From a virus: a DNA stretch of 64,000 bases. The stretch is taken from IMG/VR virus record IMGVR_UViG_3300022188_000007, positions 80,486 through 144,485 of that record, one strand, 5' to 3'. Shown here in pieces: positions 1-40,100 of this stretch. The translations under genes and the position numbers were made by a program. Position 1 is the stretch's first letter, and each line of letters starts with the position of its first letter. Below the pieces are notes generated by a model, which was not told the origin of the DNA, did not search any database, and saw only the letters and a list, made by a program, of their open reading frames with translations.

Positions 1-3000
1 GTGGAACAGAGAATACCCCATTAACTGTTTTAAATAATCTATTACCAGAGCTTTTTAGAAATGAAAAACATATGGCTAAAATTGCCATGACATTGCAGGC
101 AGTAAAACCGGAAGCCGGTAAAGATACCGCATCCAGTCAAGCGCTATTAAACGCATTAGCAAAAATGAAGCCGGTAGAAGACCAACCCAGTAGTGGTAGA
201 GAAAAGGCCGTATTTGAAGAAGGTATAAAGACTAAGTTATATGATACTAAAATGACTAATGCTATTAATGCCAACTTTTTTAAACTTAATACCGGACAAG
301 ACACTGAAGCTCTGAATAGGCAGTTGAAGTTATTTGAAAGAAACTTAGGGTACGGTGGCGGAGTTATACGACAGGGTGCTCAATATGAGCCTACTGCTAA
401 TTTAGCAAGTCGTTTTCCCCTAGACCTTAAATCCATGGGCAACACAATGGGGGAAGAACTACATACCATGATGAATGAGTTTTTACGTGTAGGGGTACAG
501 AAAGGGCTGGATGTAAAACATGCTGGAGAGACCCCAATTGCTACTGAAATGGCAAATCTAATATCTAAAGGGTCCCCAGGCGTTTCAAGCTTAATAGAAA
601 AGATAAATGCCGGAGAAGGCTCATACGGCGACCTTACTGATTTTGCAGAGGCAAATAAGAAATCCTTAGGGCGTAGATTAGGTGGTATGTCTACCGAAGA
701 TTTGTATCTTGATGCAGCCAGTATTGCTGGAGGTAGAGGTGAGTCTACTACTAAACTAGATCCAGGTAATAGAGAAGAGCTTAAAGAATACATCACTAAA
801 TCTATAGGATTTGAGGGCTTTCTTCACGAGCTGAGTAATCAAGTAATTGAAGCGGCGCATGAAGGGCTTATGAAGTCAGTTAGTGCTTGGTCCGATACCA
901 AAAAACAAAAAGAATTTAAAGGTAGTTCAGCAGAAGACTATGTAAAGGCTTCTATTAGAAAACAACTTAAGGGTGACGGTATTAATATATTGGATTCAGC
1001 GGAAAGTCCTCTAATGCCTTTATATAAAATGAGGACCTCTGGCGCATCAGGCTATCAACAACGTGGTCTATATCAGGATAAATATGGTGACGTAGAGGCT
1101 CCTGAACTCGAAGGAATCTTCCAAGGCAAAGAGGCTGATGCTTATGCCGCTAAGTATAAGGAAGCTAAAGCAGTAGCTAAAAATATACAGGATGCTCTTA
1201 TAGACTTTAGTTCTAATAAAGGTGGTAATAAGAAAGGCAGTTATTCAATGCTACTTGAAAGCAGTATAGAGAATATCTACGCTGATCAGAAAGAGATTAT
1301 GAAGTTAGTACAGGAAATGACACTTGAGAAAGATAGAACTTCTTCAAGTGTAATGGATAGATTAAGTGGTGACGCACCTATGCATGGTTTTGCCAGGGAA
1401 GCTCTAGGTAAGAAGAACAGTAAAACTCAGAAAGAATTTCTAGAGAAATATAGTAGAATTGTAGGAGTTCCTAGCCTAGGTCAAGAATCCACAGCACTTC
1501 TGAAACAAGAGTATCTTCCTCAGGCAGCTTTCCTAGCTAATGCAGAGAAGGGGCCAGCACCACTTCAAGGTGAAACTACAGACGGAGCATATCAAGATAT
1601 ATTAGATGCCCATGATAAAGCTGTAGATAAGTTAAAAGAACAATATCTAGCGGATGCTATAGTAATAGCTCAAACAGATAATATATTAAAAGCAGCCAAA
1701 ACTAAAACAGGAGAAGCAACCTTTTTAACGCAACTACTCCCCACCTCTAAAGGTGATTATGCTAGTAAATCTTATGATGATCGTAGACAACGTATATCTC
1801 AAATCGCAAAGGAGAAAGTCCAAAGAGCTAATTTTGAACAACTCACTCATCCAAGAGGCTTAGAGAGAGATGCTTTTGGCAGATCAATGCCAAGTGGAGG
1901 AGGTCCAGGAGGTCCAGGAGCACTGAGCGTAGGTGGTACAGGGCCAATTGTGGACGTAAATATTGCTAGTGTTGCTGAAGGTGTAGGCGTCTTCCTAGGA
2001 AGGGCAGCCGGAATGGCCAAGACTACTGAGGATACTAGTCCTAGATTTACAATTTCTGAAGAATTAGAAAAAAAATTAGTAAGGGCTGAGGAGATAGTAG
2101 ATGAGATTACCGGTGGTTTAAATAAGGCTACAGGTGATAGTTTTGCTAATAAATATAGAGCCAGTGGGTTAAAGGGAGGTCAAGGGCTAGACCAAATAAA
2201 TGAAATTAAAAAACAGATGCAGGGCATCAAAGCGGGTAGGAAAGCCCGAGATATTCTAGATTCATCATCTTTACTAGGTACAGGCATTCATGCTAAACTA
2301 GAAGATAGTTATAAGAAGGAGTATATAACAGAGAGACCAGTCAGGTACGACTCAGTAGCTGGAGAAATCTCTGGCACAGTAGATGCAATTAAATATGATG
2401 ATAATGAGATTGCTACTCATATAGTAGATATTAAAACTACAAGTCAAAAGAACTACGACGATTTAAAACAAGCTGTAGCTAGATTCCAAGAAAAAACTGG
2501 TAAAGAAACTCCTACACTAGATGAGATAAAAGACTATGTAGGTAAGAATCTAAAAGATAGTAAATTAGGTGATGTAGCCTCTCAGCTGAATCTATATCTT
2601 GCTGCCACCAGTGAGGATGCTAAAGCATCCGCTCATTTCTATAGTAGAACTAACCCTGATCAAGAACCTATTAAGCTAGACCAGTTTTTTGATAAAGAGC
2701 GGCTAGATAATGATGTTGCTGCGGTAGGTCAAGCTAGAAGGGAGATTAAGTTGGAAGGCGGATCATTCGCTAAAACAGCTTCTTATACTGAAGCCGAAGA
2801 GATAGAAGTTTTACTGAAAAAGAAAGAAGTGGCCGAAGCAACTATAGCTGAATTAATAGCTACCAGTACAGAGTATTATACACTAGTAACAAAGCAGGGT
2901 CTCCGTGCAAGAAAGAATCTACCTTCAACAGGCGGCCTATCTGATAAAAGTTTAAATATGATAGGTACACGTGCTAGAGAATTTCAAGCACAGTCTGTTA

Positions 3001-6000
3001 AATTTGATGATATGGTTACAGCGAATCCTATAGCTGAAGGTCGAGAGACTTATAAAGTGCATCAGAACCTTAATGTGCTGCATGAGCGTGCTAAATATTT
3101 TCAACAAAAAGAGGGTTATGAAACGTCTGGTCCCCGGTTTGATAAAATGCACCCCCAGATCCAAGAAAGAGTAACGGAGCACGGCGAGAAGGGCCCAGGG
3201 GGCGCAGCCTTTAGTGCCCTAGTGACTGAGCTTAAAGATACTGGTAAAATTGAGGGCGGAGAGATTAATGCAGCATGGAAGGCATACAGATTAGCTGTGG
3301 GGGATTACTTTGTTAAAAAGATGGCTGCTGCAAGAAAGGAATTAGATAATACAGACCCAGGGGCTGATAATATAGTAAATGTTTTCGGTGCCTACCAGAA
3401 GTCTGTTCAAGCTTTTCAGGATTTTGCTAAGCATGGTCTAGGCAAACCTACAGATATTTATACTTATAATAAACAGTACTTACATGCAGAATCTGCAAGA
3501 GGGGCCGGAATTTATATGGATTCAGCTGCCCTTCAAAAAAAAGCATCTCAGCCTCTAGGAGAAGACCCCACATTACGTAATATCTTCCAAAATATGACTA
3601 ATCTAGAGGGCGACTCGGTACCAATTCCTAGAGATTCTGTTAGGGCAGCATTGGAAGATTTAATGGATATGGATAGATCATTGATTAATCTTTATACAAA
3701 TGCAGAAAAAGTAGCCCATATGGGCAAAGATATAAATCTAGGATGGAATTTTGATAAAGTAAAAGGCGGATTATCTAGATTAAGAGCAGCCCTAGACTTA
3801 CAACTGAAACAACCAGTAGGTGAGCTTTATAATGAAGATCAGATAACCTATCTTAGAACAGTTTTAAAGGAATTAAAAGGACTGGAGACTATTTATATCA
3901 GCCTAGATCTGGATACAGACTCTTTTAAGAATCCCACAGGTGAATATAAATTCCCGACTTTAGTTCCTGTACCGAAACAATTATCTAGAGACCAGCAGTC
4001 TGCCATGCATTACCAGAATATTGAAAAAATTAAAGGTCATTATAGAACACCAGAGGCAGAAGGTGGGGCCAGGGAAGGGGATTCCTTTGTTTATAATGCT
4101 AAGACTTTCGGGCCTAGCGGTAAACAGATGGATAACCAGAGATTTGTAATTTCTAAATACGGTGAAGCAATAAATAGTGCAGGGAAGTCTGTTCCAATTC
4201 TGAAAAGTAGGCTAGATAACTTAAATAAATCCTTAGTGGACGGTAACAGAACTTTCAGTGTTGCTATAGAGAGAGTAGTTAAATGGGGCGCAGCCGCCAC
4301 ACTAGTTTATGGTGGACTAAGTTATATTAAAGATGCTGTTAAACACATGTCTGATGTTGAGACTGCTATGGCTAGATTACAGATGGTGATGAATCCATTA
4401 ACTACTGATTTCGACTCTCTACAAAAAGCAGCTTTAGGTTTTGCTAAGCAGTATGGTGTGGAGACTACGGATGTTTTAGGTAGTATGAAGGTATTTGCAC
4501 AGCAAGGTTTGAGCCAAGGGGAAGTAGAAGAGAGGACCCAAACTTCTACATTAGCAGCTAATGTTACAACTTTGAGTGCTGTAGACGCTACTGAAGCCTT
4601 AACTGCAGCTATGAAGGTATTTAGAGCCGAGGGTGAGAGTTCTATGAGGTTCTTAGATTCTTGGAGTCAAGTAGAGGCAAGGGCAGCTATTACAGCCGGC
4701 GATTTAGCCGATGCCATAAAAAAATCAGCTTCTGCTGGTAGGAATGCCGGGTTCACTTTTGATGAGTTGAATGGTATGGTAGCTGCTATAGGGTCTACTA
4801 CACGTCAAACAGGTAAAGAGGTAGGTACTTCTTTAAGATTTATCTTCAGACGAATTTCAGCGGATAAAGGACCTAAAGCTCTAAAAGGTGTAGGAGTAGC
4901 AACTACTACACCGAAAGGCACACTCAGACCTGGTTATAAGGTACTTGAGGATTTGGCAGGTAAGTGGGAAGAGTTAGAACAAGCTCAAAAACTAAGTATA
5001 GCCCAGGCTATTGGTGGTACTCGTCAGTACAACCAGGTATTAGTATTGATGGATAACTGGGACCAAGTAGTGAAAAGCACAACCGATAGTATGAATGCTA
5101 AAGGTTCAGCTGAAAGAAGAAACCTTAAGTTGATGAAAACTTATTCTAAGCAATTAGAACAAACTAAAGCAGTCTTTTCTGCGTTAAAAGTAGAAGTAGG
5201 TAAAGTAGTTCTTCCTAGTTTTAAAGCAGGTCTAACCGGTATAAGAGGATTGGTAGAAGCGGTGAATAATGTCCCCGCATCTTTTAAATTAGCTGGAGCC
5301 GGGATGGTGTTATTTGTGGGATATATAACTAAAGGGGCTGAGGCCCTTAATACCATAATGAGCCTAGTAGATAGAACTAAACTTTCTTTTTCAGCCCTAA
5401 AAGATGATTTTTCTAAAGGGATAGATAAAGGGATGTTTGAGGTCTTTGGTAAAGGTACTCCAGAGCTAGATTCAGATTTATTTGGTCTTTCTAAGTTAAG
5501 TGATACTGGTACTGTAAATATTGATGATATGGAAAGCTCTTTAGGTAAGTTAGCTTTCGGGGCTTTATCAGCAGGTCAAGCCTTCAATAAATTCGCAGGC
5601 ATAGTAGGCTCTGACTCTGCGTCTGCAGTTTCTGCAGTCGGTAAATACGTGACAGCCTTTGGCGCTCTAGTAGAAAAAACAGGCACCGGTATATCTTTAA
5701 TACCAGGGATACCTGGTCCAGTAGACGAAGCTGTAGGGGTAGCAACAAGCTTTACAGGCAAAGCAATAAAAGGTACTGGCGGAGCTTTTGATTTTGTAGG
5801 TGATAAGGTGGGTAAAGGGGCCCAGTCCTGGATGGAGGGCTTTGCTTCACAGAATACATCTGCAATGAAATCAATGGCCCCACTTTTAGGTACATTAGGG
5901 GGGATAGCTTTATTAGCCCCAACAATAATAGACGCATTCAAAAACTTAACTCAATCTGCAACAGACTATAAAGATGAGCAGTTAAATAGGTTGGAGGTAG

Positions 6001-9000
6001 ATGCTAAGGAGATTGATTCTCTACAGGGATTAATTACTTCATATAAAAATTTACAAGATCAGAAAGAGAAGATAACTAGATTATCAGACCCAAAGGTTCA
6101 GGCTAAGGGTATAAAACGTGGCGAATATAAAAGCCCTATCTTGGAAAAGATTGACGCTTTAAAGGCTACTAGAACATTTGATTCTAACTTAGGCGCTATG
6201 GACCCTAGCATGATAGCAGGTTTCGATGAGTTTGGCCGTGTAATATTAAGTAATACAGCTAATCTAACAGGATATCTAGAGGAATTAAAAAGAGCCAAGA
6301 CTGTCACACTAGCCTTATCTAAACTTAAAATAGCAGCCCGTTTTACAGACGATCTTACTGAGACGGGGGGCAATCAAGAATGGAAGCAGCAGGTTAAATC
6401 ACTTGCAGCCGAATTCCCATTAATTGGTGAAATGTTGGCTAAGAATATCACTGTAGGGCCTAAGAAAGCACTAGAAGTTATAAGAGAAGAGCTAGATCAA
6501 CTTTTAGCGGCTAAAGCAGAAGCCCCTATGTCTACGGCATTTGATTCAGACATAGAGAGATCATTAACAGCACATGCTAAAGTATTAAAAACTTTCAGTG
6601 CTACATATGCAGAACTAGGTAAAACCTTAAGTAGTATAAGTACTGAAGGTGCTACTGTAACTGATATCGCGGATCTATATAAATCACCAGACGCATTGAA
6701 GACGTTTGATCTTCAGGCCGCATATGAAGATAAATACCAGATTGCTGAAGTAAGGGGAACTGTTAGTGGTAGAGACATCGCAGCATCTAAAGTATTAAGA
6801 ACTCAATCAAGTGGACTGGGTTCTTATATAGAAGCGTCTAGTGTTCTTACTGAAGCTAATTTATTTTCGGCAGGACGATTACCTAGGAAACCCAAGAAAG
6901 ATGGCACTATAGGTGCATCAGATAATGACCTTGTTACACTTAATAAAAACTTTGCAGAGAAATATGGTATTGCTACAGGCCAAGCTACTTTGAAAATAGG
7001 TAAAGACCATAAGTTATTCTTAGAATTTATAGACGCACTCACAACAACCCCGACTACTAAAGAGTTTTCACAAGCAGAAATTGAAGCAGCAGCAAGAGCT
7101 TTTTTCCCTGTTGATGAGATATTACAAAAGGCCCAAATAAGTGTAACTAAGCTTAATACTTTTGTAGCTGGAGCGTCAGCAGGTATATTAGGGGTATCTG
7201 AAAAAAAATTAAATACACGTCAGTTTGATTTAGGTGAACGCTTCTACGATCAAATTCCTACTAATGTATTATTACAGACTGAAAAAGGTTACAATACAAA
7301 AACAGGTACTTTTGGAAAACAGGACTATAAAGAAGATTATAGTTCAGACTTTATTGATAAGTATTATGATCCCCTACAAAAGTATAACACAGCCAAATCT
7401 GCCTTAGGGGGAGACAACGCCTCATTGGACGCCTCAGTATTAGGAGGTCTGGCCGAACAACTTCGAGGCCTACAAGATATTTTAAAAAACAATTCAATAG
7501 CTTTTCAATATAGAGCAGCAATAGAGGATTTAAATAAAGCACTGTATGAGGGGGCTAGAGCCACAAGGAAAAGTATACTTGTAGAACAAGAAAGGCAAAA
7601 AGTTGATAAACATACTGCTGGGTTTATGCGCGGTAAAACTAAAGGCGTGGCTTCTATTGATCAGGGGGTTACTAACTATAAAGATTTAAATGATCAGCAA
7701 AGAGCCTCGTTAATGTTTAAAGATTATGATGCCCTAGCAAAGAAAATTCTTGTACAAGAGACTAGTATTGAAGGCTTAATAGGCCAGTCTAAGTCAGTTG
7801 CAAGCACCTATGCGGATATCCAAGAGATAGGTAAAGCTCCTGAAGGTTTTGATGCAATAATGACTAGGGGCCGTAATGTTGAGTTAATGAGTATTATGGA
7901 TAAAGTAGATAACGATAAGGGGGCTGCTCAAATTTCAATGAGAGTTTCGGAACTGAAGTCTCCTTTAGAGGGTATTTTAGCGAACACCGACATAATGGCC
8001 GCCAATACCTATGGAAGACCAGGGGATATTAAAAGAGCTGCAGCTACTGCAGAAGAGAACTTAGTTATAGCCGAACAAAGGAAGCTTGCAGGTAAAGGCC
8101 CATTGGATAATACTGTTGACAATAAAACTGATCCAGTGAAAACATTCAAAAGTCTTCAGAAACTAATGACCATCAGAGACGCCGCCGCAAAGGAAGGAGA
8201 TACTGTTACTGTACGTGCACTGGACAATACACTTGCTGATTCTTATGGTAGGGCTTTGAAAGTATATGGTATGAAGGATTTTGCTAGGTTAACTAAACTA
8301 GTTGCTCCTACCAAGTTTTTTTCTTCCAATAACAAGGAATTAGTGGCATCAAGGGCATCCGCTTTAGCACAAAAAGGTATAGGTACAACTCCAGACAGAA
8401 TGATGCAATCTATAGAGTCTGCTAAGATGGCAAAAGCCGCCCTAAGGACTCAGAGCTTTATTGATAAGTTAACTGCCTTTAAAGCCCCTGAGAAAGAGAT
8501 CGAGCGTGCAAAGAATAGGCAGTGGTATGTACCTTCTAAAGAAGTAAGGGACTATGAAAAAGCCTACGCAACAGATCCCAGTAAACCACTAATAAATCCT
8601 AAAATATTTGAGAAGGCTCTAATCGCTGGAGCAATACTTCCTGCTTTTCAGGGGAAATCTTTGGGTGAGAAGAGAACTACTATAGAAGATCAAATAAACA
8701 GGTTACAGAAACAAAAAGATAATTACCCTAAGGAAGGTAAAGAGGCTGAAAAGCTAGGGATTGATAAAAAAATAGAAGGCTATCAAAAGATATTAACGGA
8801 TGATTTAGATCCTCAACAATTTGTAACTTCCACTTTACAAGGGCTATCAACAACAGCACTTGCTGCATACGAAGGGGTGGGAATATTCGGAGGCTCCCAG
8901 TCTGATAAAGAAAATATGGCTGCCGTAGGTGCAGGTCTTTTTGTTATAATGAAATCACTAGAGTCTAGAATAGGTAAAGACAATATGCCACAATATTTCA

Positions 9001-12000
9001 AGGACTTTTCTAAAGAAGCAGTGGATAAGATTAAGATCGCGGTTGAAACAGGAGATTACTCTGATATGGCCAATGATCTAGGTAAAAAAACCAAAAAGTT
9101 TTTAAAGGGTTTTAATAAGTCCATGGAAGCTCAAACCGAAAAGGCGGAAGACGCAGGCATTGACCCTGAGAAAGACATTAGAGAACGTCGTAAAAGACTA
9201 AAAAAGTTAAATGCTACCCTGGATCTGGAGAGTACTACTAAGTCTCTTAATGAGGTCACTGATGTAGGGAGCAACAATTTGTTGAGAGGGTTAGAAGCCA
9301 TAGCAGTTGTAATGACTGCGCAAGCAGTTGGGGGCTGGAAATCTAAAAAAGGGGAAACAGCAGCCAGAGTCAAGGATGGTGTAAACGTAGCTAAACAACA
9401 AGGTCTAGCTTCTTTAGCTTACTCTGAAAAGAATGCTGCAGCCGTAGATGCCTACATAGGAAAGCTTGTACTGACCCAAAAGGAGTTGGCAGAGAAGAAA
9501 GGTCCTGATGGCGGAGCAATTAATATAGTTATGGATGTTATGGAGGACTTTAAAACTAGTTTAACATTGGCTGCTGCCGAAGGTAAAACACTTGAGGAAG
9601 CAATGTCAGGGCTTCAAGATAAAATAGGTGACACTAAAGTTTTTACCGGTATTTACACAGATGTGGCTAAATTAATAGGAGCTATGGAGAACTTTAGAGC
9701 AGAACTTCAAAAATCATTTACAACTTTTGATGATAAACGTTTATTAGATCCTACACGTTCTTTAAAGGGAGAGTTATTGGGTTTTGGGGGCGAGACAACT
9801 CTTCCAATAGGTAGACGTGACATGTCGACTCAACAAAGAGCTTACGCAGGTGGGTCAGACTCCTTAAGGTCATCCTTTGCAGTAATGTCTAAAGGGATTT
9901 TGATACAAGAGGCCCAAATAAAAACTTTAGGTTTTGTTAGATCTCAGATAGCTGACACTGAACAAAATATAGATTTTGGTACCAAATATGGAACATCTGA
10001 TTCACAATTAGAAGCTTGGGAGATGCACTTAAAGGGGCTTGAAGGCACTCTGGCTAACTTACAAAACGTGACTACTTTAACTAGCCAACAGTTGCAGGCG
10101 TTGGGTACTTCTATGCGAGGGGCTATTAAGTACTCAGAGGCTATCAACAAATTAAATGATGCTTTGGCAGATGTTTCTGTGGAGCACGCTGTAACTGGTA
10201 TAACAGGATTAAAAACTTATTTTGATTCTTTTGAGGTGTTGCTAGGTGGCTCAGATCCGTTAGCCGCCCAACCTGTTTCACCAGAACAAGAAAGAATGGG
10301 AGCTAAGGTAGGAGTAAGATTAGTTTCTGGTGAATCAACCTCTATGGATATAGAACGTGCCCAGTTACTCACAGAGATAAAGAATGCCACAGACTCTAAA
10401 TCTAGAACTGCTGCTAGTATAAAACTAGGAGATCTTGATGAGAAGTATAGAAGGTTAGGTATTGATAAAGAACAACAAGTCGAGAACCAGCGGCTTGGTT
10501 CTACTATGAAGCCTTATGAGGATTTTTACCGTAATATGGAAGGGTTGTTAGGAAGTAATGAATTAAATGATAAACAATATGGAGAAATTAGTGGCGTTAA
10601 AAATGAATTTAAAGAAGCCATGAAAAGAGCTACGGAAAAAATACCTATAGATGAGGCAATAGCTCAGCTGGAAGGGCAAAAAGACAACTTAGGGGCTAAT
10701 CAATTCAAGGAAGCCATGAAAGAATTAGTGGCAATGAAAGCAACAGGGACTACACAAGTATATAGAGGTATGGATAGAACCAAAGACTGGCAAGGTATTA
10801 TGAGTAGAGTCATGGCAGGTTATGATAAAGAAATAGATGCATACAAGGCTGCAACCGGTACTACTGATTTAGATACTTCTTTAGAAAACATGGTAACTAA
10901 CCCACTAGTAAATGTTATTGGGATGTCTAATCTACTTCTAGCTGAATTAGTGACACACTTTGTAGACAAAAAAACTGCGGCAGACATACTCAATGGGCCT
11001 CAAAAAAAAGAGTTAGAACCAGATTACTTATTTTCTTCAATAGTCCCTGATAAAAAAGTTGTATTAGCAGAAGCACAAGATTTTCTGAAAGGCATTAGTA
11101 TTAATCCTGCGGACAATTTAAAAACACAGCCATATGATTTCAATAACGACAATATTGATCCAAATAGAGGCCGCCCTACATTGTTTGGTAGACCTGTAGG
11201 TCCAATAAGTAAAGATGCGCTTGGGTTGCCTCCAATACAAGATAAGGTAGTACCTCCACCTCCAACAGAGGTCGAATTAGCTGCTAAAAAGCATCCTAGG
11301 TTTAAGGAAATGGAGACTTACGTGAAAAATATAAGCCTTGATCCTATAGCTAATTTAAAAACAGAGCCATTTGGCCCTAATTCTGAGCAAGACAATTCAC
11401 AAATTGTAGCTGTAAATGAACTTCAGTTAGTAACTCTAAAAAAAATAGCTACCAGTCTTAGCAGTAATGGTTCTGGTGATTCCACTGAACCTACTACTAA
11501 AGCCGCAGGCGGAAGAATCTTTGGAGAAGGTGGTCCAAGAGAAGATAAGGTACCCGCTTATTTAAGTCCAGGAGAGTTTGTAATAAGAGCAGCTGCTGCA
11601 CAACGGCTTGGTTATGAGAATCTAGATGTAATGAATAAGAAAGGGCAGGTCCCTGTGGCTTTTGAGAGTGGGGGCTCCTTAAACCAGAGGCACATAACAC
11701 AAGCACATCAGTATTTTGTAGATCCTGATGCGGTACTGCCCCCAGAGTTTAATCCAGAGTCAGAGCTATATAATAAAGGAATAACAGGTAAATATATTGA
11801 TTTACGGAAGTCAATGCTTTCTGAAGAACAGCGGGAAGCTGTTGCAGGTATCTCCACATTAAAGGGATTATATAATACTTTTTCTGATATGGCTGGTAAT
11901 GATGAGGATAAATTAAATTCTTTATTTCCTGAAGATATAATGCCTGTAATGGAGCGTTTCGAAGAGAACAAAAAAGCCCAAGAAGAGAAAGGTATATTGG

Positions 12001-15000
12001 GTTGGATGAAAGGAAAATTAAAAACCAAAAATAAGGCAACAGCAGGTGCAAGGGCAGTTACAGGCCTTGATAAGGCCGAGTTATTAAAAGAAATAAGTAC
12101 CTATGCTGACGGTGGCCGAACCATTAGTACTGTTACTGGTAAACCTATACCCACAGCAGAGGAAACAGAAGAGGGTATGGCAAAGATGCGAGAAGCTTTA
12201 GGTTTTGTAGCTTCTGTAGGTCACCCAATTACTTCTATCCCCACCTCTATCTATGGCATGTATCAAGGTTTTAAAGAAAAAGGTCTTAGTGCCCAACCAG
12301 CTGTTGAAGGTTTTGGGGGCTTAGAACTATTAAATTATATACCACAGGCTAAAAGACTCGGTAAAATGAAAACAATTTTAAGTAAAGGTTTTGGTAGATA
12401 TTTTGATAACGCAGGGGACGTGAATGATTATTTTGATATTACTGGTAAGTTAGGGGGTAAACTAACTTCATCACACGGAGATGATTTTGACGCGTTACTA
12501 GCTTCCGAGAATACTTTTGAGGAGGGCGGCTTATCTCTTTGGGATAAATTACTGGGTAAACAGTTCGATCCTACAGAGAGATGGAAGGGTAAAAAGTTAC
12601 CATCAGGTATGGGAAAATTTGATAAACCTGAGGTGACAAAAAAATTAGAAGACGAAATAAAAGCTACAAAACGCCATGATGTTCATTCTTTTAGTTTCCT
12701 ACGCGAAAAACATGGTTTTGTGAAAGCATTACAACTTTATGGTGCAGGATCTCGTTTACAAGAAGGGGCAGATATATTAAAGAAGGCTGATGGTGGTAAG
12801 ATAAGAAGTTTTATAGGTGATTCCACAGGAGTAGCAGAGGTAGGAGAAGAGTTATTTAATGAAAGAATCAATGCCCCTGTACTAACTCGGTCTGTGGCCA
12901 GTATGATTAAATCAGAGTTTGGCACCTCAGACGTAGGTAACAATCAATTAGGTGCGCCAGTAGATAAATTAATGGGCACTTCGTTTGATCCATCTGCTAC
13001 CATGTTAAAAGATAGTAGAGCTTTTACAGCTGTTGGTAATAATATAAAATCATATGCTTCTACAGCCGATTTTAATACCGGTAGAGCGAAGTCTGATAAA
13101 TTGAAGGGCAATATAGGTAAAGGTAATATAATCCCAGGTATGGATGGATTAACCTCTATATATGATGGATTCTTAACTTCCAAATACAATAGCCCCTTCT
13201 TATCGCAAGAAGAGCAATCCAACAATAGGGCTTGGTATGAAGCCACTAGAGAGCAAGAGATAACCAATAAACAGAAATATGAATTATTAGGTGATGCAAA
13301 AACAGACGCAGATAGGAAACAGCTTACTGACTACTGGCAGTCTGTGGGTAAGGCTGCTCCAAGTAAGTTTGCTGATGGAGGGAATGTCGATGAAGAAGAG
13401 CCTGTGATTGAGTGGGGACATACTACTGCTAAAGCTGTCATGGATAAATGGACAGCGGAAGCTAAAGATGCGGCTATGTATAGATCGTTACATGCTATGT
13501 CTAGTGCTGAAGATTTTGCATTAAAATTGGATAGAAATAAAAAAGCTAGAACCGACATGACCAGAATTCTAGCTGATAACGAATACTTAGATAAAGACAC
13601 CCAAGAAGGGTATGATTATTCATTTGATAAACACCGAGGATTAAGAATACTTACTGATGAAGATTCGGGGGTGAAGGTAGGTAGAGTAATTACTAAGTCA
13701 TATCGTTCTGTAGATGAAAGTTATAGACCTAGATCTATGGCAACTGTTAAGAAACAAGTACATGACCCATTTGCTATATCCGAAGATGCTTATTCTTCTG
13801 GCGCGCTTACTGATTTCTCCGAGAGATTATCTCTAGACAGTAACTATGGTAATGAGGCTTTTAGGTACCACGGTGAGGGCCGTGATATATGGAAGAATAT
13901 GCAACGCTATAAGAAATTATTTTATGGCTCTCCGGGTGAAAGTAAAGCATCTGAAGGGTATTTAGCAAAATTTCAAGCAGGCCAAAAGAACCTTGATAAA
14001 GTACGTTTAGTGATGAAGGTTTTAGAAGAAGGTGGTAATATTTATGATGACTCCAGACTTCAACAGAAAGTGGGCGGACCAGCTAGGTTAGAGGCTTTTG
14101 ATTTTGGAGGTAAGAAAGGTACTGTAGATATACCTACTAGAAATTTCAAAAGAGCTGAACTACTTAAAGAATTACAAGCGTTATATGGGGATGAATCTCA
14201 AGGGGCCATCATTAGTGCTGAGAGGATAAAGAATGAAATCTCCGCTTTAAACGCGCAGAAAATAGAAACTTCTGATGGTACAGTGGAATACATAAGGGCA
14301 GATGAACAGAAATATACGTCTGTTTTACAGGATATTAAAGACGCCGCCGTAATTGCACGAGGTGAGTTAGATCCTAAAGGCAAAAATGCAAGAAGACGGG
14401 CTGTTACAAGAGCTCAGTCCCCTCTATTATATAATTATTCTAATACGCTACGGGACAAAGAATTGGCAAGAGCAGGGTTCCTAAAGCAGACTGGCCCACC
14501 GAAAGATTTTTCCGACTTCGATAAAAAAGATATTCCAGATATGAAAAAATGGCTGGCTGCTGGAGATTATGGCTATGTAACTAGTGACACAGTGCAACGA
14601 ATGAAGGACTTTATTACGAGTGAGACATACAATGTGGGTGGTGTAGCTACTAGATCTATGCCAGTTAAACATTTTGGCGGTGTGGTAACACAAACTGGCC
14701 CAGTATTTGCTCAGAAAGGTGAATACATTATACCTAAAGGATTTAAAGATGGTACTTCGGGTTTGGGTGGTGTAACCTCCAGTCCAGCTTCCCAAGCTTT
14801 AACTTCAGGATCGATGAGATTAGATGGTTCTGAGGTATTATCACAATTAAATAGTTTAAGTTTAAAGGTGGATAATACTACGGTTAAGGTAGACACTACT
14901 GAGGCAGCAAGTAGACTATCATCTTCTATTAGTGATGCTTTTAGTGGTATAGAACCATTTAAAGTAGAAGATAAAACTCTATTAGTAGAAGATAAGGTTT

Positions 15001-15788
15001 TCTCAGTAGAAGATAAAAAGTTAACTGTGGAAGATAAAACTTTTACTATTGAAGATAAAACTTTTAAGGTAGAGGATAAAATTTTCTCAGTAGAAGATAA
15101 AAAGTTAACTGTGGAAGATAAAACTTTTACTATTGAAGATAAAACTTTTAAGGTAGAGGATAAAATTTTCTCAGTGGAAGACAAAAAATTAACCGTGGAA
15201 GACAAGGTTTTTACTATTGAGGATAAGGTTTTTAAGGTAGAGGATAAAATTTTCTCAGTGGAAGACAAAAAATTAACCGTGGAAGACAAGGTTTTTACTA
15301 TTGAGGATAAGGTTTTTAAGGTAGAGGATAAAGTACTAACAATAGATGCTTCTAATATTTCAGTAGATATCGGCGATGCAGAGGCTAGATTAGCTTCAGC
15401 GATTAGCAATGCGATTAGTAGTGCGGTAGTTAATATAAAAGTTGAGGCCCCTACTACTGGAGGGTCAGTCGGCGCGGATAAATTCGATCAGTTAGCCCAA
15501 ACAGTATCAGATGTAAACGATAAACTTATAAGTAGTTCTGTGATTATGGAGAGTAGAGTGAAGATTTTAGAAGGGGGTATAGACTTAGTTGTGGATGAAA
15601 GCGTGGAAAAAAAACTAGCTTCTAAATTGATGAGTATTAATGAAAGTGTAACAGGGGCTCTCTTGAGTGTAGATACTGTAGCTAATAATGTAACCACTCA
15701 AATAGATAGTATAAGACGTGAGTCTAACGAAATAAAATATCTAGCACATATGGCTTTAAATGCTAGAGGTTCAGGAAATATAACTTAA
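1..15788 (+). CDS. Giant multidomain tail tape-measure protein (5'-truncated, >5,260 aa)
   Basis: The frame of the 72..15788 ORF stays open back to base 3 (GTENTPLTVLNNLLPELFRNEKHM) and has no SD before ATG 72, so the true start lies upstream of the window. It has a TP901-type core, hydrophobic helices (FKLAGAGMVLFVGYI, MAPLLGTLGGIALLAPTII), a helical Ala/Lys/Glu-rich composition, typical C-terminal TMP motifs and a position just before hub-like genes. Confidence 0.9.
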   Translation, partial: GTENTPLTVLNNLLPELFRNEKHMAKIAMTLQAVKPEAGKDTASSQALLNALAKMKPVEDQPSSGREKAVFEEGIKTKLYDTKMTNAINANFFKLNTGQDTEALNRQLKLFERNLGYGGGVIRQGAQYEPTANLASRFPLDLKSMGNTMGEELHTMMNEFLRVGVQKGLDVKHAGETPIATEMANLISKGSPGVSSLIEKINAGEGSYGDLTDFAEANKKSLGRRLGGMSTEDLYLDAASIAGGRGESTTKLDPGNREELKEYITKSIGFEGFLHELSNQVIEAAHEGLMKSVSAWSDTKKQKEFKGSSAEDYVKASIRKQLKGDGINILDSAESPLMPLYKMRTSGASGYQQRGLYQDKYGDVEAPELEGIFQGKEADAYAAKYKEAKAVAKNIQDALIDFSSNKGGNKKGSYSMLLESSIENIYADQKEIMKLVQEMTLEKDRTSSSVMDRLSGDAPMHGFAREALGKKNSKTQKEFLEKYSRIVGVPSLGQESTALLKQEYLPQAAFLANAEKGPAPLQGETTDGAYQDILDAHDKAVDKLKEQYLADAIVIAQTDNILKAAKTKTGEATFLTQLLPTSKGDYASKSYDDRRQRISQIAKEKVQRANFEQLTHPRGLERDAFGRSMPSGGGPGGPGALSVGGTGPIVDVNIASVAEGVGVFLGRAAGMAKTTEDTSPRFTISEELEKKLVRAEEIVDEITGGLNKATGDSFANKYRASGLKGGQGLDQINEIKKQMQGIKAGRKARDILDSSSLLGTGIHAKLEDSYKKEYITERPVRYDSVAGEISGTVDAIKYDDNEIATHIVDIKTTSQKNYDDLKQAVARFQEKTGKETPTLDEIKDYVGKNLKDSKLGDVASQLNLYLAATSEDAKASAHFYSRTNPDQEPIKLDQFFDKERLDNDVAAVGQARREIKLEGGSFAKTASYTEAEEIEVLLKKKEVAEATIAELIATSTEYYTLVTKQGLRARKNLPSTGGLSDKSLNMIGTRAREFQAQSVKFDDMVTANPIAEGRETYKVHQNLNVLHERAKYFQQKEGYETSGPRFDKMHPQIQERVTEHGEKGPGGAAFSALVTELKDTGKIEGGEINAAWKAYRLAVGDYFVKKMAAARKELDNTDPGADNIVNVFGAYQKSVQAFQDFAKHGLGKPTDIYTYNKQYLHAESARGAGIYMDSAALQKKASQPLGEDPTLRNIFQNMTNLEGDSVPIPRDSVRAALEDLMDMDRSLINLYTNAEKVAHMGKDINLGWNFDKVKGGLSRLRAALDLQLKQPVGELYNEDQITYLRTVLKELKGLETIYISLDLDTDSFKNPTGEYKFPTLVPVPKQLSRDQQSAMHYQNIEKIKGHYRTPEAEGGAREGDSFVYNAKTFGPSGKQMDNQRFVISKYGEAINSAGKSVPILKSRLDNLNKSLVDGNRTFSVAIERVVKWGAAATLVYGGLSYIKDAVKHMSDVETAMARLQMVMNPLTTDFDSLQKAALGFAKQYGVETTDVLGSMKVFAQQGLSQGEVEERTQTSTLAANVTTLSAVDATEALTAAMKVFRAEGESSMRFLDSWSQVEARAAITAGDLADAIKKSASAGRNAGFTFDELNGMVAAIGSTTRQTGKEVGTSLRFIFRRISADKGPKALKGVGVATTTPKGTLRPGYKVLEDLAGKWEELEQAQKLSIAQAIGGTRQYNQVLVLMDNWDQVVKSTTDSMNAKGSAERRNLKLMKTYSKQLEQTKAVFSALKVEVGKVVLPSFKAGLTGIRGLVEAVNNVPASFKLAGAGMVLFVGYITKGAEALNTIMSLVDRTKLSFSALKDDFSKGIDKGMFEVFGKGTPELDSDLFGLSKLSDTGTVNIDDMESSLGKLAFGALSAGQAFNKFAGIVGSDSASAVSAVGKYVTAFGALVEKTGTGISLIPGIPGPVDEAVGVATSFTGKAIKGTGGAFDFVGDKVGKGAQSWMEGFASQNTSAMKSMAPLLGTLGGIALLAPTIIDAFKNLTQSATDYKDEQLNRLEVDAKEIDSLQGLITSYKNLQDQKEKITRLSDPKVQAKGIKRGEYKSPILEKIDALKATRTFDSNLGAMDPSMIAGFDEFGRVILSNTANLTGYLEELKRAKTVTLALSKLKIAARFTDDLTETGGNQEWKQQVKSLAAEFPLIGEMLAKNITVGPKKALEVIREELDQLLAAKAEAPMSTAFDSDIERSLTAHAKVLKTFSATYAELGKTLSSISTEGATVTDIADLYKSPDALKTFDLQAAYEDKYQIAEVRGTVSGRDIAASKVLRTQSSGLGSYIEASSVLTEANLFSAGRLPRKPKKDGTIGASDNDLVTLNKNFAEKYGIATGQATLKIGKDHKLFLEFIDALTTTPTTKEFSQAEIEAAARAFFPVDEILQKAQISVTKLNTFVAGASAGILGVSEKKLNTRQFDLGERFYDQIPTNVLLQTEKGYNTKTGTFGKQDYKEDYSSDFIDKYYDPLQKYNTAKSALGGDNASLDASVLGGLAEQLRGLQDILKNNSIAFQYRAAIEDLNKALYEGARATRKSILVEQERQKVDKHTAGFMRGKTKGVASIDQGVTNYKDLNDQQRASLMFKDYDALAKKILVQETSIEGLIGQSKSVASTYADIQEIGKAPEGFDAIMTRGRNVELMSIMDKVDNDKGAAQISMRVSELKSPLEGILANTDIMAANTYGRPGDIKRAAATAEENLVIAEQRKLAGKGPLDNTVDNKTDPVKTFKSLQKLMTIRDAAAKEGDTVTVRALDNTLADSYGRALKVYGMKDFARLTKLVAPTKFFSSNNKELVASRASALAQKGIGTTPDRMMQSIESAKMAKAALRTQSFIDKLTAFKAPEKEIERAKNRQWYVPSKEVRDYEKAYATDPSKPLINPKIFEKALIAGAILPAFQGKSLGEKRTTIEDQINRLQKQKDNYPKEGKEAEKLGIDKKIEGYQKILTDDLDPQQFVTSTLQGLSTTALAAYEGVGIFGGSQSDKENMAAVGAGLFVIMKSLESRIGKDNMPQYFKDFSKEAVDKIKIAVETGDYSDMANDLGKKTKKFLKGFNKSMEAQTEKAEDAGIDPEKDIRERRKRLKKLNATLDLESTTKSLNEVTDVGSNNLLRGLEAIAVVMTAQAVGGWKSKKGETAARVKDGVNVAKQQGLASLAYSEKNAAAVDAYIGKLVLTQKELAEKKGPDGGAINIVMDVMEDFKTSLTLAAAEGKTLEEAMSGLQDKIGDTKVFTGIYTDVAKLIGAMENFRAELQKSFTTFDDKRLLDPTRSLKGELLGFGGETTLPIGRRDMSTQQRAYAGGSDSLRSSFAVMSKGILIQEAQIKTLGFVRSQIADTEQNIDFGTKYGTSDSQLEAWEMHLKGLEGTLANLQNVTTLTSQQLQALGTSMRGAIKYSEAINKLNDALADVSVEHAVTGITGLKTYFDSFEVLLGGSDPLAAQPVSPEQERMGAKVGVRLVSGESTSMDIERAQLLTEIKNATDSKSRTAASIKLGDLDEKYRRLGIDKEQQVENQRLGSTMKPYEDFYRNMEGLLGSNELNDKQYGEISGVKNEFKEAMKRATEKIPIDEAIAQLEGQKDNLGANQFKEAMKELVAMKATGTTQVYRGMDRTKDWQGIMSRVMAGYDKEIDAYKAATGTTDLDTSLENMVTNPLVNVIGMSNLLLAELVTHFVDKKTAADILNGPQKKELEPDYLFSSIVPDKKVVLAEAQDFLKGISINPADNLKTQPYDFNNDNIDPNRGRPTLFGRPVGPISKDALGLPPIQDKVVPPPPTEVELAAKKHPRFKEMETYVKNISLDPIANLKTEPFGPNSEQDNSQIVAVNELQLVTLKKIATSLSSNGSGDSTEPTTKAAGGRIFGEGGPREDKVPAYLSPGEFVIRAAAAQRLGYENLDVMNKKGQVPVAFESGGSLNQRHITQAHQYFVDPDAVLPPEFNPESELYNKGITGKYIDLRKSMLSEEQREAVAGISTLKGLYNTFSDMAGNDEDKLNSLFPEDIMPVMERFEENKKAQEEKGILGWMKGKLKTKNKATAGARAVTGLDKAELLKEISTYADGGRTISTVTGKPIPTAEETEEGMAKMREALGFVASVGHPITSIPTSIYGMYQGFKEKGLSAQPAVEGFGGLELLNYIPQAKRLGKMKTILSKGFGRYFDNAGDVNDYFDITGKLGGKLTSSHGDDFDALLASENTFEEGGLSLWDKLLGKQFDPTERWKGKKLPSGMGKFDKPEVTKKLEDEIKATKRHDVHSFSFLREKHGFVKALQLYGAGSRLQEGADILKKADGGKIRSFIGDSTGVAEVGEELFNERINAPVLTRSVASMIKSEFGTSDVGNNQLGAPVDKLMGTSFDPSATMLKDSRAFTAVGNNIKSYASTADFNTGRAKSDKLKGNIGKGNIIPGMDGLTSIYDGFLTSKYNSPFLSQEEQSNNRAWYEATREQEITNKQKYELLGDAKTDADRKQLTDYWQSVGKAAPSKFADGGNVDEEEPVIEWGHTTAKAVMDKWTAEAKDAAMYRSLHAMSSAEDFALKLDRNKKARTDMTRILADNEYLDKDTQEGYDYSFDKHRGLRILTDEDSGVKVGRVITKSYRSVDESYRPRSMATVKKQVHDPFAISEDAYSSGALTDFSERLSLDSNYGNEAFRYHGEGRDIWKNMQRYKKLFYGSPGESKASEGYLAKFQAGQKNLDKVRLVMKVLEEGGNIYDDSRLQQKVGGPARLEAFDFGGKKGTVDIPTRNFKRAELLKELQALYGDESQGAIISAERIKNEISALNAQKIETSDGTVEYIRADEQKYTSVLQDIKDAAVIARGELDPKGKNARRRAVTRAQSPLLYNYSNTLRDKELARAGFLKQTGPPKDFSDFDKKDIPDMKKWLAAGDYGYVTSDTVQRMKDFITSETYNVGGVATRSMPVKHFGGVVTQTGPVFAQKGEYIIPKGFKDGTSGLGGVTSSPASQALTSGSMRLDGSEVLSQLNSLSLKVDNTTVKVDTTEAASRLSSSISDAFSGIEPFKVEDKTLLVEDKVFSVEDKKLTVEDKTFTIEDKTFKVEDKIFSVEDKKLTVEDKTFTIEDKTFKVEDKIFSVEDKKLTVEDKVFTIEDKVFKVEDKIFSVEDKKLTVEDKVFTIEDKVFKVEDKVLTIDASNISVDIGDAEARLASAISNAISSAVVNIKVEAPTTGGSVGADKFDQLAQTVSDVNDKLISSSVIMESRVKILEGGIDLVVDESVEKKLASKLMSINESVTGALLSVDTVANNVTTQIDSIRRESNEIKYLAHMALNARGSGNIT
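2154..2750 (+). other. PD-(D/E)xK (Cas4/RecB-like) nuclease domain within the tape-measure protein
   Basis: Motifs occur in the expected order: YRASGL (2154), GTGIH (2277), TE, SGTVD (2373), IVDIKT (2427), QLNLY (2583). This matches the G-x-x-x-H / E / G-x-x-D / D-x-K / Q-x-x-x-Y signature. No Fe-S cysteines are present. Confidence 0.8.
4260..5250 (+). other. Tape-measure core domain (TP901/PhageMin_Tail-like)
   Basis: The stretch AIERVVKWGAAATLVYGG...DVETAMARLQMVM...AKQYG...FAQQG...AANV...ATEALTAAM...DLADAIKKSASAGRNAGFTFDELNGMVAAIGSTTRQTGKEVGTSLRFIF...SIAQAIGGTRQYN is characteristic of this family. Confidence 0.9.
14955..15332 (+). repeat. In-frame tandem repeat: 18 x 21 bp (xxx[VI]EDK heptads) with an 84-bp higher-order period
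   Basis: The protein reads PFKVEDK TLLVEDK VFSVEDK KLTVEDK TFTIEDK TFKVEDK IFSVEDK KLTVEDK... The four-heptad block FSVEDK/KLTVEDK/xFTIEDK/xFKVEDK repeats four times with near-identical DNA. Confidence 0.97.
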
Positions 15789-37138: not shown

Positions 37139-40100
37139 ATGAAAACAGATTCTATTAATAAATGCCAGTACTGGAATAAATATGAACCAACTCTTTGTAT
37201 ATACTGGGATGATGGTGCTACTACGTGTAATTATCAAGCAATCGCAGCAGCCGCAGCTCAAGATTCGGCTAATGCCCTTAAAGTTCCAAATCATTCTCCA
37301 GCTTGTAATTTACTTGGTACTTCTGTCAGTTGTTCTCACTATATAGCATCTTCCCCAGGTGAAGTATTAGCAAGATGTATTCTACCTGATCCTAGAAGAC
37401 ATGTATGTAATAGGGCTACTGGAAAAAGTTGGGTAGTTGTCGGCGAACCAACTGGTGATGTTAATGATAGCGGCATTGAGTTGTTTGATTGGGACTTTGA
37501 CACAATAAATGGGTACAATGAGGGGGAGTGCGACGGTACTGGTACTGATACTACTTGTTCTGGTTATGCCCCATATCATATGGGTTTTGGCACCCTTCAA
37601 CCCTCAGATAGCCCAGATTTAGACACTTTTGAGTCCGGTCATTATTCTTTAGATGTTGAATTTGGTTTCAGACTTCCTACTAATTTTACTATCTATAATA
37701 TTCGAGCGGCACTATCTAGGTGTCATTGGTGGAGAACTGACCCGGGCACATTTGCAGTTGACGCTGAAGGTAAAGTGAAATTAAAAGGTAATTGGGAATG
37801 TTCTTGCCCTAAGGATACTAGTGCTTATAGTGAATTTACACTTGAAAATGGTCCCCCATGTAATGGGTGTAAGCCTGAGTGTTCTAACTATACTGGGGTT
37901 TGCTGGCAGTACTGTATAGATGAGAAAATGGAGGATGGTGACCCTATATTAGCGGAACAGATACATGAACTGAGATATTATCATAGAGAAAATAACTGGA
38001 CTAAAGAAGCAATACAAGCAATATTTATCGATGAAGGAGAAATCTTTACTTGGCACGGCTCTGCTGATTCAGGTAAGTGTGCAACAGATGGATCTAGCCA
38101 GTCGATGGAAGAAGACTGTGAAGATGGAGGGGCCTCTATACATGGTATATTATCTACTACTGTTGGTTCTGATGGTAATATAGAAGAGTATAGAATTCCT
38201 GCAGTTAAAGTGTCTATGCCTTCATTTGAAGAGTTCACTATTGAAACTCAGAATGTGGAGTTGACTCAAGGCACAGAGGTGGCTGGCACACTAGAGAATT
38301 TTCCTACCTTAGTAAGAGCGTTACAATTATTCCCTTTATCCCCCATAATAAAAACAGAGTTTAATAAGCATACTACCTCTAATGATGTAGATATCGGGTT
38401 CTTTGAAACTCCTTATCTAGCGGAAGGGATTAGTACTTTAATTTATGGTAAACTATTTTATTCTACTGTAGCTTATGCCATTAATTTGAGCGATGCTGAG
38501 GTACAGGCCATACTTCCTGTGGAATTGTATTATTTTGATGATATATACATACTAGAATCTGAACTAGGACCTGAGGCTTATGAGGTGTTTAATATTAAGT
38601 TAGAGGCTACATTGAAAGCAATAGCGACAATATCCCCTGAAAAAGTAATTCCTAATTCTTTACCTGATGAAGACAGAACATTTTTAATGGATGTGCCTGT
38701 GTTATCTAAAGACCGTACATATGACGGGTCCAATAAAAATACCATTTTGGTCTTTCAAAAAGCCAATAATATATTTACTTTCGATAAAGTAACATTTACT
38801 AAGCGAGTTGTAGGGGGTATGTTATTCCAAGATGACTTTCAGATTATAGGGGATCAGAAACTAGTTAGAAAACCGATTCCTAATTTTGAGAAATCCTTTA
38901 TGACTAATTTAAATAACAACGGCTCTATGTCGTTTCATTTCGAGCCTTTTATAGACGCAGGTCTTGCAACAGATGCGTTATATACATACAACGATGTCCG
39001 CCATGTTGATCCTGTAGACGATCCTATCTATGTTGGTAGTACTAAATATAAAATTACTATACCTCAATATACACTTGAAACTTCTACTGTTCCAGGTTCC
39101 CCACAGGAATTTAAGGTTATTGGTTCAAATGGCTATGCTCTTATCACATTGAATGACTTATTTGTTAATAATGTTATAGAGAATTGGGAAGCTAAAAAAA
39201 TAGTAGCTACTTATGGTAATGATACTATAGATGAGGAGGGTAACCTAACTACCGAGTATACTGAGTGTGAAATGCAAATTGTACGCCATGGAGGGGATCG
39301 TAAATTAGCTAGCGGTCAGGTACTAGTTAAACCTAAGGATATGAGTGATTTTAATTCATTATGTGGTGATACTTTAGTGGAAATAAATGATTTAACGTAT
39401 ATGGAAAAAAGAAGTTTTGAACAGCCCCCAGATATAGATCTTGGTACTTATGAAGAAATAGACACAAATGGAAATGAGGTTCTTATAGAGGCGGGCGAAT
39501 TTGAGGGTACTTCTGAGCAGTTCACTATTAAAAATTATAAATTTGTTCTTACTTTAGCTACGGTTATGCAAGATAGTACTGGTAGGCCTTTTACTATGTC
39601 AAGAACTAAACCTATAGGTATGGTTAAGCAGGTAGCTTGCCCAGACGTAGAGATATATTATAAATGGACCGCGGTGTATAACCTATGGCAAAATCTTCCT
39701 ATATGTACATGTTGTGGTCCTCGATCAGAAAAATTTCTAGCCTCTGGTATTTTAATATCAAACGTACCTTTATGTGGCGATCACTTTGAATGTAAAGGGT
39801 GTTATCCTGCTGCTGTCTGGTGGCCTTATAACATGTGTCAAGGATACACGGGGTACAATCAAGTCACAAATTTAGATAATTGGGACGTATCAATGATTGG
39901 GTTATTTAAAACCAAATCTACAGATACAGAGGGCAATGAGAGTTACGATCACGGATCACATGATATGCGCATGATGGGGCCGCATATACGTTATGCCTCC
40001 AGCGGTTTGTATTGTCCACCTAAACCCTGTGCTTGTCCTATGTTGACGTATAACAATTATATGACGGAGGAGCCTTATTTCACAGGGTATGGTAGGATAA

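Follow-up and report, generated by a model that had tools for sequence, protein, structure and literature searches.

A giant tape measure protein of an uncultured jumbo phage with predicted RNA polymerase and exonuclease domains

RESULTS

A giant open reading frame predicted to join two enzymes to a tape measure

We analyzed a 64,000-nucleotide (nt) stretch of virus DNA (here called the window), which comprises bases 80486 to 144485 of the 144,485-bp IMG/VR record IMGVR_UViG_3300022188_000007 (55% complete according to CheckV), and in particular the giant open reading frame (ORF) with which it begins. The source is a hydrothermal-vent jumbo phage whose genome we put at roughly 260 kb, within a range of 235 to 270 kb. 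We consider it probable that the giant ORF encodes the tape measure protein (TMP) of this phage, that the N-terminal half of the protein is cargo consisting of an RNA polymerase (RNAP) and an exonuclease, and that the tape measure proper runs from a TP901-family core onward. Sequence comparison and structure prediction support the domain identities, the intact catalytic residues, and the conservation of the fusion. A first reading of the window from its letters alone (the original prediction) had proposed that the TMP carries enzymatic cargo for injection. The cargo stood up to analysis, since both domains keep their catalytic residues across 20 to 26 homologues and remain fused to the TMP, and delivery is suggested by analogy to gp96, the TMP of phage P23-45.

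Within the window, the ORF is a single uninterrupted frame on the plus strand at 3 to 15788 (5,261 amino acids [aa] plus stop), open at its 5′ end, in agreement with the frame of more than 5,260 aa originally described. In the full record, the frame opens at genome position 72811, with a TTG at 72868 as its likely start. This codon is preceded nine bases earlier by AGGGGGG, lies 7,618 nt upstream of window position 1, and extends the protein to 7,801 aa (the gene call in a public collection, P0019, has 7,745 aa). Residue numbers below refer to the 7,801-aa protein, from which window residue numbers are obtained by subtracting 2,540; all window coordinates of the ORF are on the plus strand. From N to C terminus, the parts are an N-terminal region of ∼1,100 aa, the RNAP, a Gly/Pro linker, the nuclease, the TP901 core, and a stretch of ∼3,500 aa made up of the helical body and C-terminal repeats.

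Residues 1120 to 2750 resemble a two-barrel RNA polymerase

By sequence and structure prediction, the region from aa ∼1120 to 2750 is a single-chain, β/β′-like, two-barrel DNA-dependent RNAP domain that is presumably active. The original prediction had noted possible RNAP motifs, correctly, and only the part of the module that follows the active site falls inside the window (nt 3 to 632; aa 2541 to ∼2750; conserved in 26 sequences). The barrels lie upstream (genome 76909 to 80178) and contain FEDQIVIS at aa 1348, RYGSKG at aa 1471, and LDFDGD at aa 2432; the DFDGD triad occupies genome positions 80164 to 80178, about 310 nt upstream of the window. Also upstream are GRKFTTRYGSKG at aa 1465 and PIDIRISSHGIAKRG at aa 1627, which, like FEDQIVIS, resemble signatures of the RpoB β subunit.

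These motifs are strongly conserved. LDFDGD was identical in all 17 of the first homologues (30 to 49% identical overall), and LD[FY]DGD was found at each of 34 viral loci. In an alignment of aa 1290 to 2489 (alignment A2; 22 sequences, 31 to 70% identity), residues E1349, D1350, R1466, K1467, R1471, K1475, D2433, D2435, and D2437 were invariant. Features by which two-barrel polymerases are recognized are present in both double-psi β-barrels (DPBB): the D-x-D-x-D metal-binding triad of DPBB-A (LDFDGD, aa 2432 to 2437) and the two basic residues of DPBB-B (K1467 and K1475, in a segment that aligns to R[H]GNKG in stand-alone polymerases passing the Pfam Rpb2_6 cutoff). The predicted fold is likewise similar to solved RNAP catalytic subunits, with aa 1841 to 2479 resembling the N-terminal ∼500 to 600 residues of the largest subunits. 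An AlphaFold2 model of aa 1290 to 2489 had a mean predicted local distance difference test score (pLDDT) of 73.

A profile search of 1.84 billion representatives, which returned 142 proteins, linked the module to recognizable polymerases, as it also found Cys-containing stand-alone proteins of ∼1,000 to 1,180 aa. Most of these pass the Pfam gathering cutoff for RNA_pol_Rpb2_6, and 4 of 8 scanned pass that for RNA_pol_Rpb1_2; the one queried against the PDB (P0124) matches RNAP β chains. Comparison of A2 with an alignment of nine stand-alone proteins by hhalign gave a probability of 99.6% (E = 6e-25) over 403 columns, which take in three β motifs (FEDQI, R[YH]G[SN]KG, and PIDI..S..KR). Local hhalign carried the homology with stand-alone RNAPs back to about aa 1120. 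Past the active site, GIKTKLYDTKMTNA (nt 222 to 263), FKLNTGQDTEA (nt 279 to 311), and MNEFLRVGVQKGLDVKHAG (nt 471 to 527) are conserved in the family (26 sequences). Because homology reaches back to aa ∼1120 and conserved motifs follow DFDGD, we place the module at about aa 1120 to 2750. The conserved motifs at aa 2614 to 2643 and 2697 to 2715, inside the window, are candidates for the bridge helix and trigger loop.

Direct searches were less informative. Foldseek with the 1,200-aa RNAP model returned nothing from the PDB at an E value of ≤0.001, many of the weak matches being RNAP β′, and no significant match in BFVD, with scattered rows of RNAP β′. PDB-chain searches with aa 1201 to 3000 and with a five-sequence RNAP profile gave chance matches only. 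A polymerase of the crAss/YonO type had been our first guess and was dropped because the motifs and the profile link point to β/β′-type enzymes. Pfam matches of the giant protein to FH2, DASH_Dam1, and DAHL were judged to be noise.

Relative to cellular RNAP β/β′, the module has colinear motifs in common (FEDxIxxS, R[HY]GxKG, P[IV]DIxxxxxGxxxR, and N/K-LDFDGD). It differs from the cellular enzymes and their fused single-chain derivatives in that it is a strongly diverged single chain that falls below the Pfam cutoffs, contains large insertions, and sits inside a structural virion protein. Having no cysteine, it also lacks zinc sites.

A PD-(D/E)xK exonuclease domain follows a Gly/Pro linker

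The linker SGGGPGGPG was found exactly where originally reported (nt 1893 to 1919). After it comes a domain that belongs with the PD-(D/E)xK exonucleases of Cas4/RecB/lambda-Exo type (nt 2058 to 2765; aa 3226 to 3461). The original prediction of a nuclease domain was thus borne out by both sequence and fold. An alignment profile of this domain matched Cas4 SSO0001 (4IC1; E = 8e-5), and an AlphaFold2 model of aa 3181 to 3990 (pLDDT of 75.8 overall and 80 to 93 across the nuclease) has the restriction endonuclease-like fold, recovering EXO5, SSO0001, ACE1, AdnAB, LHK-Exo, MGME1, RecE, and lambda Exo in Foldseek (probability of 0.95 to 1.00). The catalytic motifs are present, reading D3349-I-K3351 and Q3401-LNL-Y3405 in this protein, and H3303, E3317, G-x-x-D3334, D3349-x-K3351-T, and Q3401-x-N-x-Y3405 are invariant in an alignment of aa 3231 to 3480 (20 sequences, 22 to 72% identity). 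PHROG gave a weak nuclease hint only (phrog_1706).

The order of motifs, H...E...GxxD...D-x-K...Q-x-x-x-Y, is common to the giant protein and to Cas4 (4IC1), LHK-Exo (3SYY), lambda Exo (3SLP), and human EXO5. The four-Cys Fe-S cluster, which is confined to the Cas4, EXO5, and AddB subgroup, is absent, as the domain has no Cys; it therefore groups with the cluster-free lambda Exo and RecE and not with Cas4 proper. Two further differences from the family are that about 45 helical residues are inserted between D-x-K and QxxxY and that the domain is located within a TMP, whereas its relatives are stand-alone recombination or CRISPR proteins.

A separate observation concerns the linker region. In four vent runs, one contig tracks the window to about nt 1720 to 1727 and then diverges, while another joins the window at nt 2054 after unlike sequence. 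Since both loose ends (nt 1727 to 2054) read open in the frame of the ORF, a second in-frame allele of this ∼109-aa stretch seems to coexist with the reference.

The tape measure core lies downstream of both enzymes

The TP901-family core had been placed ∼1,400 residues into the visible part of the ORF, and we located it at window aa 1463 to 1775 (nt 4389 to 5327; aa 4003 to 4315). This region matches TIGR01760 (tape_meas_TP901) with an E value of 1.6e-40 (139.3 bits; cutoff of 28.8) and PF10145 with an E value of 2e-27 (96.7 bits; cutoff of 33.2). Six TMP PHROGs agree (phrog_4211, E = 2e-72). Two hydrophobic, membrane segment-like 19-mers (Kyte-Doolittle) are found at the end of the core and beyond it (nt 5271 to 5930; aa 4297 to 4315 and 4498 to 4516). 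The Ala/Lys/Leu-rich tape measure body occupies nt 5340 to 10982 (aa 4320 to 6200). Most homologues align with it over the first ∼900 aa, up to about aa 5200, and the homologue count falls to 0 to 5 by aa 6000 to 6200, in part since the retrieved loci end there.

Cysteine is absent from the entire chain

No Cys had been noticed in the visible part of the frame, and the count for the whole protein was 0 in 7,801 aa. In the remaining 99 plus-strand ORFs of the record, 441 of 34,556 aa are Cys (1.28%), so that about 100 would be expected in the giant protein (P about 1e-43). The same pattern was seen across the family: 50 giant fusion proteins together have 18 Cys in 364,455 aa, compared to 118 in 9,543 aa for nine stand-alone polymerases. 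Because the stand-alone paralogues contain Cys and the giant fusions hardly any, the avoidance of Cys is specific to the TMP-borne polymerase.

The polymerase is constant and the nuclease variable among relatives

At 33 of 34 IMG/VR loci, drawn from separately numbered metagenome data sets, the protein is encoded in one open frame, which begins ∼2,000 to 2,700 aa ahead of DFDGD and continues beyond it for at least 580 aa, in the usual case for more than 3,000 aa; most frames run to the end of the locus, and L034 is the exception. Each frame encodes 0 to 4 Cys. BLAST query coverage was near-complete from aa ∼100 to ∼5200, and local hidden Markov model (HMM) scans found the order RNAP, nuclease, TMP core in about 50 full-length clusters of 6,400 to 8,000 aa. 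In all, about 60 database clusters in this size range, defined at 50% identity, have the same domain order. The recurrence of this arrangement suggests that it is maintained by selection.

The original prediction had called for a survey of homologous TMPs for conserved versus swapped cargo. The RNAP was found in every relative of the giant protein, and the nuclease was without an HMM match in 12 of 57 proteins. On a tree of the RNAP module, presence or absence of the nuclease requires 5 to 8 changes (FastTree, a quick method, with midpoint rooting, and with absence defined as no HMM match), which suggests that the domain was lost or gained several times in this family. Two well-supported sister pairs, P0025/P0057 and P0063/P0076, differ in the nuclease, and in P0057, which lacks it, the distance from RNAP to core is shorter than in P0025 by about one domain length. 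More distant Cys-free proteins of 4,000 to 5,600 aa have only the RNAP and TMP core and a shorter N terminus.

One homologue of 7,000 aa (P0018) has precomputed Pfam matches to PF00929 (RNase_T/DnaQ-type exonuclease) and PF10145 and keeps the PD-(D/E)xK domain, so that two nucleases may be present in this relative.

Independent metagenomes contain the same frame

The giant-ORF stretch occurs in hydrothermal-vent metagenome runs, with no RNA run among the listed public runs that contain it. In three vent runs, none of them flagged as a possible source, contigs tile the part of the ORF that lies in the window (depth in 30, 28, and 26 of 30 bins, respectively). Almost all of these contigs are at least 99% identical to it, with 0 joints and 0 indels. 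No single contig of the independent runs spans the whole ORF.

Some relatives encode a second, stand-alone polymerase

Paralogues of the TMP-borne RNAP, which are single-chain β-β′ fusions, were found as separate genes in two related jumbo genomes that are complete or nearly so. The relative G001 (268,764 bp, 100% complete) encodes one of 1,109 aa (E = 0; L043, G001:44346-47516, minus strand), and G003 (237,910 bp) encodes one of 1,180 aa (E = 0; L042, G003:113084-116374).

Other regions of the giant protein and neighboring genes

The N-terminal residues 1 to 1270 gave only unnamed clusters with low recognition in an ESM Atlas feature search, and an NCBIfam scan produced no match within the first 4,000 aa. 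The region between RNAP and linker (nt 633 to 1889; aa 2751 to 3169) is conserved, with BLAST coverage in 35 to 46 of 51 homologues, and had no Pfam, PHROG, or PDB sequence match. Between nuclease and core, the model shows helical bundles and a small β-sheet (nt 2820 to 4352; aa 3480 to 3990), a stretch of ∼500 residues for which no convincing structural match was found.

In the C-terminal motif region (nt 11499 to 14747), the GG-containing motifs reported after the helical region are indeed present as four copies of [KYF]A[AD]GG (aa 6373, 6574, 6801, and 6996), one of them followed by VPAYLSPGEFVI (nt 11550 to 11585). A second GEYII, at aa 7446, begins GEYIIPKGF (nt 14718 to 14744). No lytic domain was detected by Pfam scan or when the last 1,601 aa were searched against the PDB, where the only match, to M-protein, was driven by repeats. 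A near-perfect tandem repeat (93% matches) of 84 nt in 4.4 copies, built of 21-nt units, occupies nt 14963 to 15332 and encodes about 17 VEDKxFx heptads; the length of the ORF is likely to vary here.

Two paralogous, Cys-rich HNH genes (L003:1349-2212 and L003:5913-6782; genome 61349 to 62215 and 65913 to 66785) match phrog_559 with E values of 1e-26 to 1e-28 and are probably homing endonucleases. They lie upstream of the window amid otherwise unannotatable, presumably structural genes. Downstream of the giant ORF are further giant ORFs, both with Cys, at window positions 37139 to 42730 (1,863 aa; no Pfam match) and 43160 to 53335 (3,391 aa). By size alone, the downstream ORFs of 992 to 3,391 aa are possibly baseplate or fiber genes. 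Searches of the window's record and of four near-complete relatives gave no match to the sheath family PF04984, a result whose value for inferring tail type is limited by divergence.

DISCUSSION

Comparison with P23-45 gp96 and other virion polymerases

The closest known arrangement is gp96 of Thermus phage P23-45, a 5,002-aa TMP with an N-terminal two-barrel RNAP and DFDGD at residue 779 (Chaban et al. 2024, Nat Commun, PMC10770324). In that study, the gp96 RNAP is shown to be active in vitro, to occur in virions within the full-length gp96 chain, and to transcribe pre-early genes, including the gene of a paralogous nonvirion RNAP; Chaban et al. propose that transcription takes place at the TMP pore while DNA enters (PMC10770324). 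Like the giant protein, gp96 (GenBank sequence L052:13288-28296; PDB structures 8H2M and 8H2N) combines RNAP and tape measure in one chain, with the DFDGD-containing RNAP ahead, and has hydrophobic membrane segments. By our count, its 5,002 aa likewise include no Cys, an absence not mentioned in the sections of PMC10770324 consulted. A paralogous stand-alone nonvirion RNAP exists in P23-45, and its counterpart here was seen only in the relatives G001 and G003.

The two proteins nonetheless differ in several respects. The RNAP is at the very N terminus of gp96 but follows about 1,100 aa in the giant protein (DFDGD at 2433). gp96 contains a metallopeptidase domain and no nuclease, whereas the giant protein contains a nuclease, and no lytic domain was detected in it. 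The lengths are 5,002 and about 7,800 residues, and P23-45 is an 84-kb thermophilic phage, compared to roughly 235 to 270 kb for the phage studied here. The RNAP, nuclease, and TMP core profiles of the giant protein did not detect gp96 (hmmsearch, E ≤ 1e-3), and the RNAP module had no tblastn match among 50,697 GenBank phage records. These sequence comparisons suggest that the giant TMP resembles gp96 in arrangement and lies outside its sequence family. 8H2M and 8H2N were not among the Foldseek matches listed for the RNAP models, an absence of little weight either way.

Virion-packaged polymerases that are delivered with the DNA and start transcription also include gp66 of crAss-like phage phi14:2 and gp50 of N4 (PMC10770324). 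Their carriers are not tape measures, and the N4 enzyme is T7-like; PDB sequence searches and Foldseek searches of PDB and BFVD detected no similarity of the giant protein to either. The literature searched contained neither a nuclease embedded in a TMP nor a TMP-RNAP fusion from a jumbo phage. An RNAP-TMP fusion is known in kind from P23-45; what is new is the nuclease within the TMP and the occurrence of the fusion in jumbo phages.

A proposed route for the cargo

By analogy with gp96 and with TMPs in general, the whole giant protein would be built into the virion. At infection, it would exit via the tail and form or line an envelope channel, with its hydrophobic segments inserting in the envelope, and would carry the RNAP, plus the nuclease in most relatives, to the entering DNA end. 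There, the RNAP may transcribe pre-early genes without the host enzyme; in relatives that have it, the stand-alone paralogue could take over later transcription. More speculatively, the nuclease may act on entry-site DNA, host DNA, or the phage genome end. While tethered, it could resect the end of the incoming genome, preparing it for recombination or circularization, or it could destroy host or competing DNA at entry. The total lack of Cys fits a chain that passes a narrow tube and an oxidizing compartment and then folds or refolds.

Weighing the evidence

Several observations weigh against this reading. In the polymerase itself, the LDFDGD region matches Pfam RNA_pol_Rpb1_2 (aa 2429 to 2455; NLDFDGDQ) at 17.3 bits, below the cutoff of 25.3. 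The β-type barrel is badly modeled (pLDDT of <50 at model residues 45 to 66 and 176 to 224), and its assignment therefore rests on motifs and profile comparison. hhalign of aa 2420 to 2760 with the stand-alone RNAPs covered just 36 columns, around DFDGD, leaving the bridge helix and trigger loop unconfirmed. In the genomic context, we did not find the stand-alone RNAP in the record of the window itself, which is 55% complete, or in G002 (97% complete), G004, or G005. PHROG and Pfam scans of 19 flanking ORFs revealed no tail, capsid, or other virion family; the sole matches were the two HNH endonucleases and one sub-threshold Ig-like domain. Finally, about 4,000 residues of globular cargo would be hard to fit in or through a tail tube.

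This last difficulty speaks for an alternative that we regard as unlikely, namely, that the product is a true polyprotein. A phage protease, or the chain itself, would make the cut before or during assembly. The tape measure would then consist of just the C-terminal ∼3,800 residues, and the RNAP and nuclease would become free head or internal proteins or stay unpackaged. Cargo too bulky for the tail lumen would then pose no problem, the flexible Gly/Pro linker between the two enzyme regions and the repeated [KYF]A[AD]GG motifs of the C-terminal part could be processing features, and processing is known for other TMPs and for giant-phage ejection proteins, such as those of SPN3US. However, Pfam, PHROG, and NCBIfam scans of the ORF revealed neither a protease domain nor a cleavage motif of known type. 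The sole tested case, gp96, keeps its RNAP in the full-length TMP in virions (PMC10770324). Moreover, the avoidance of Cys spans the whole chain including the cargo, and therefore fits an entire chain that leaves one cell and enters another.

A second alternative, which we consider highly improbable, holds that the enzyme-like regions are inactive relics serving as spacers, plugs, or DNA-binding modules, so that nothing catalytic is delivered. The RNAP is indeed so divergent that it escapes direct sequence searches of Pfam and the PDB, and it is interrupted by large insertions, such as one of about 140 aa that separates RYGSKG from PIDIRISS; the nuclease is dispensable in the 12 relatives without it. 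Against this, the catalytic residues of both domains are invariant at 22 to 40% identity, where relics would be expected to lose them, and the equally divergent gp96 is active (PMC10770324).

An assembly chimera was a concern raised along with the original prediction; the sequence comes from metagenome assembly and is contained whole in no single independent contig. The chance of a chimera, or of read-through of adjacent genes, is nevertheless vanishingly small, because the open frame (33 of 34 loci) and the domain order (database clusters) recur independently and contigs from three further runs, almost all at least 99% identical, tile the window part without joints.

The reading of the giant ORF as a cargo-bearing TMP can be extended, tentatively and with less confidence than we attach to the assignment itself. 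RNAP-TMP fusions may have arisen at least two times in unrelated lineages, with the TMP serving as a modular injection platform in which the RNAP is fixed, the nuclease is exchangeable, and the N terminus forms a module of ∼1,100 aa. RNAP-TMP fusion would then be a recurrent way to start transcription at the DNA entry pore, and the nuclease would be the first known to ride on a tape measure.

Significance

TMP-fused virion RNAP has so far come from one small group of Thermus phages. Our findings suggest that the arrangement occurs in a large, diverse clade of uncultured jumbo phages from vents and other environments, with an RNAP of a different lineage from that of gp96 that retains recognizable cellular β/β′ motifs. 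If the proposed delivery is correct, two small enzyme fragments would be open to testing, and avoidance of Cys along the whole chain, set against Cys-containing cytoplasmic paralogues, would be a sequence signature of ejected proteins. Tape measures would then be enzyme carriers, beyond their roles as rulers and channel formers.

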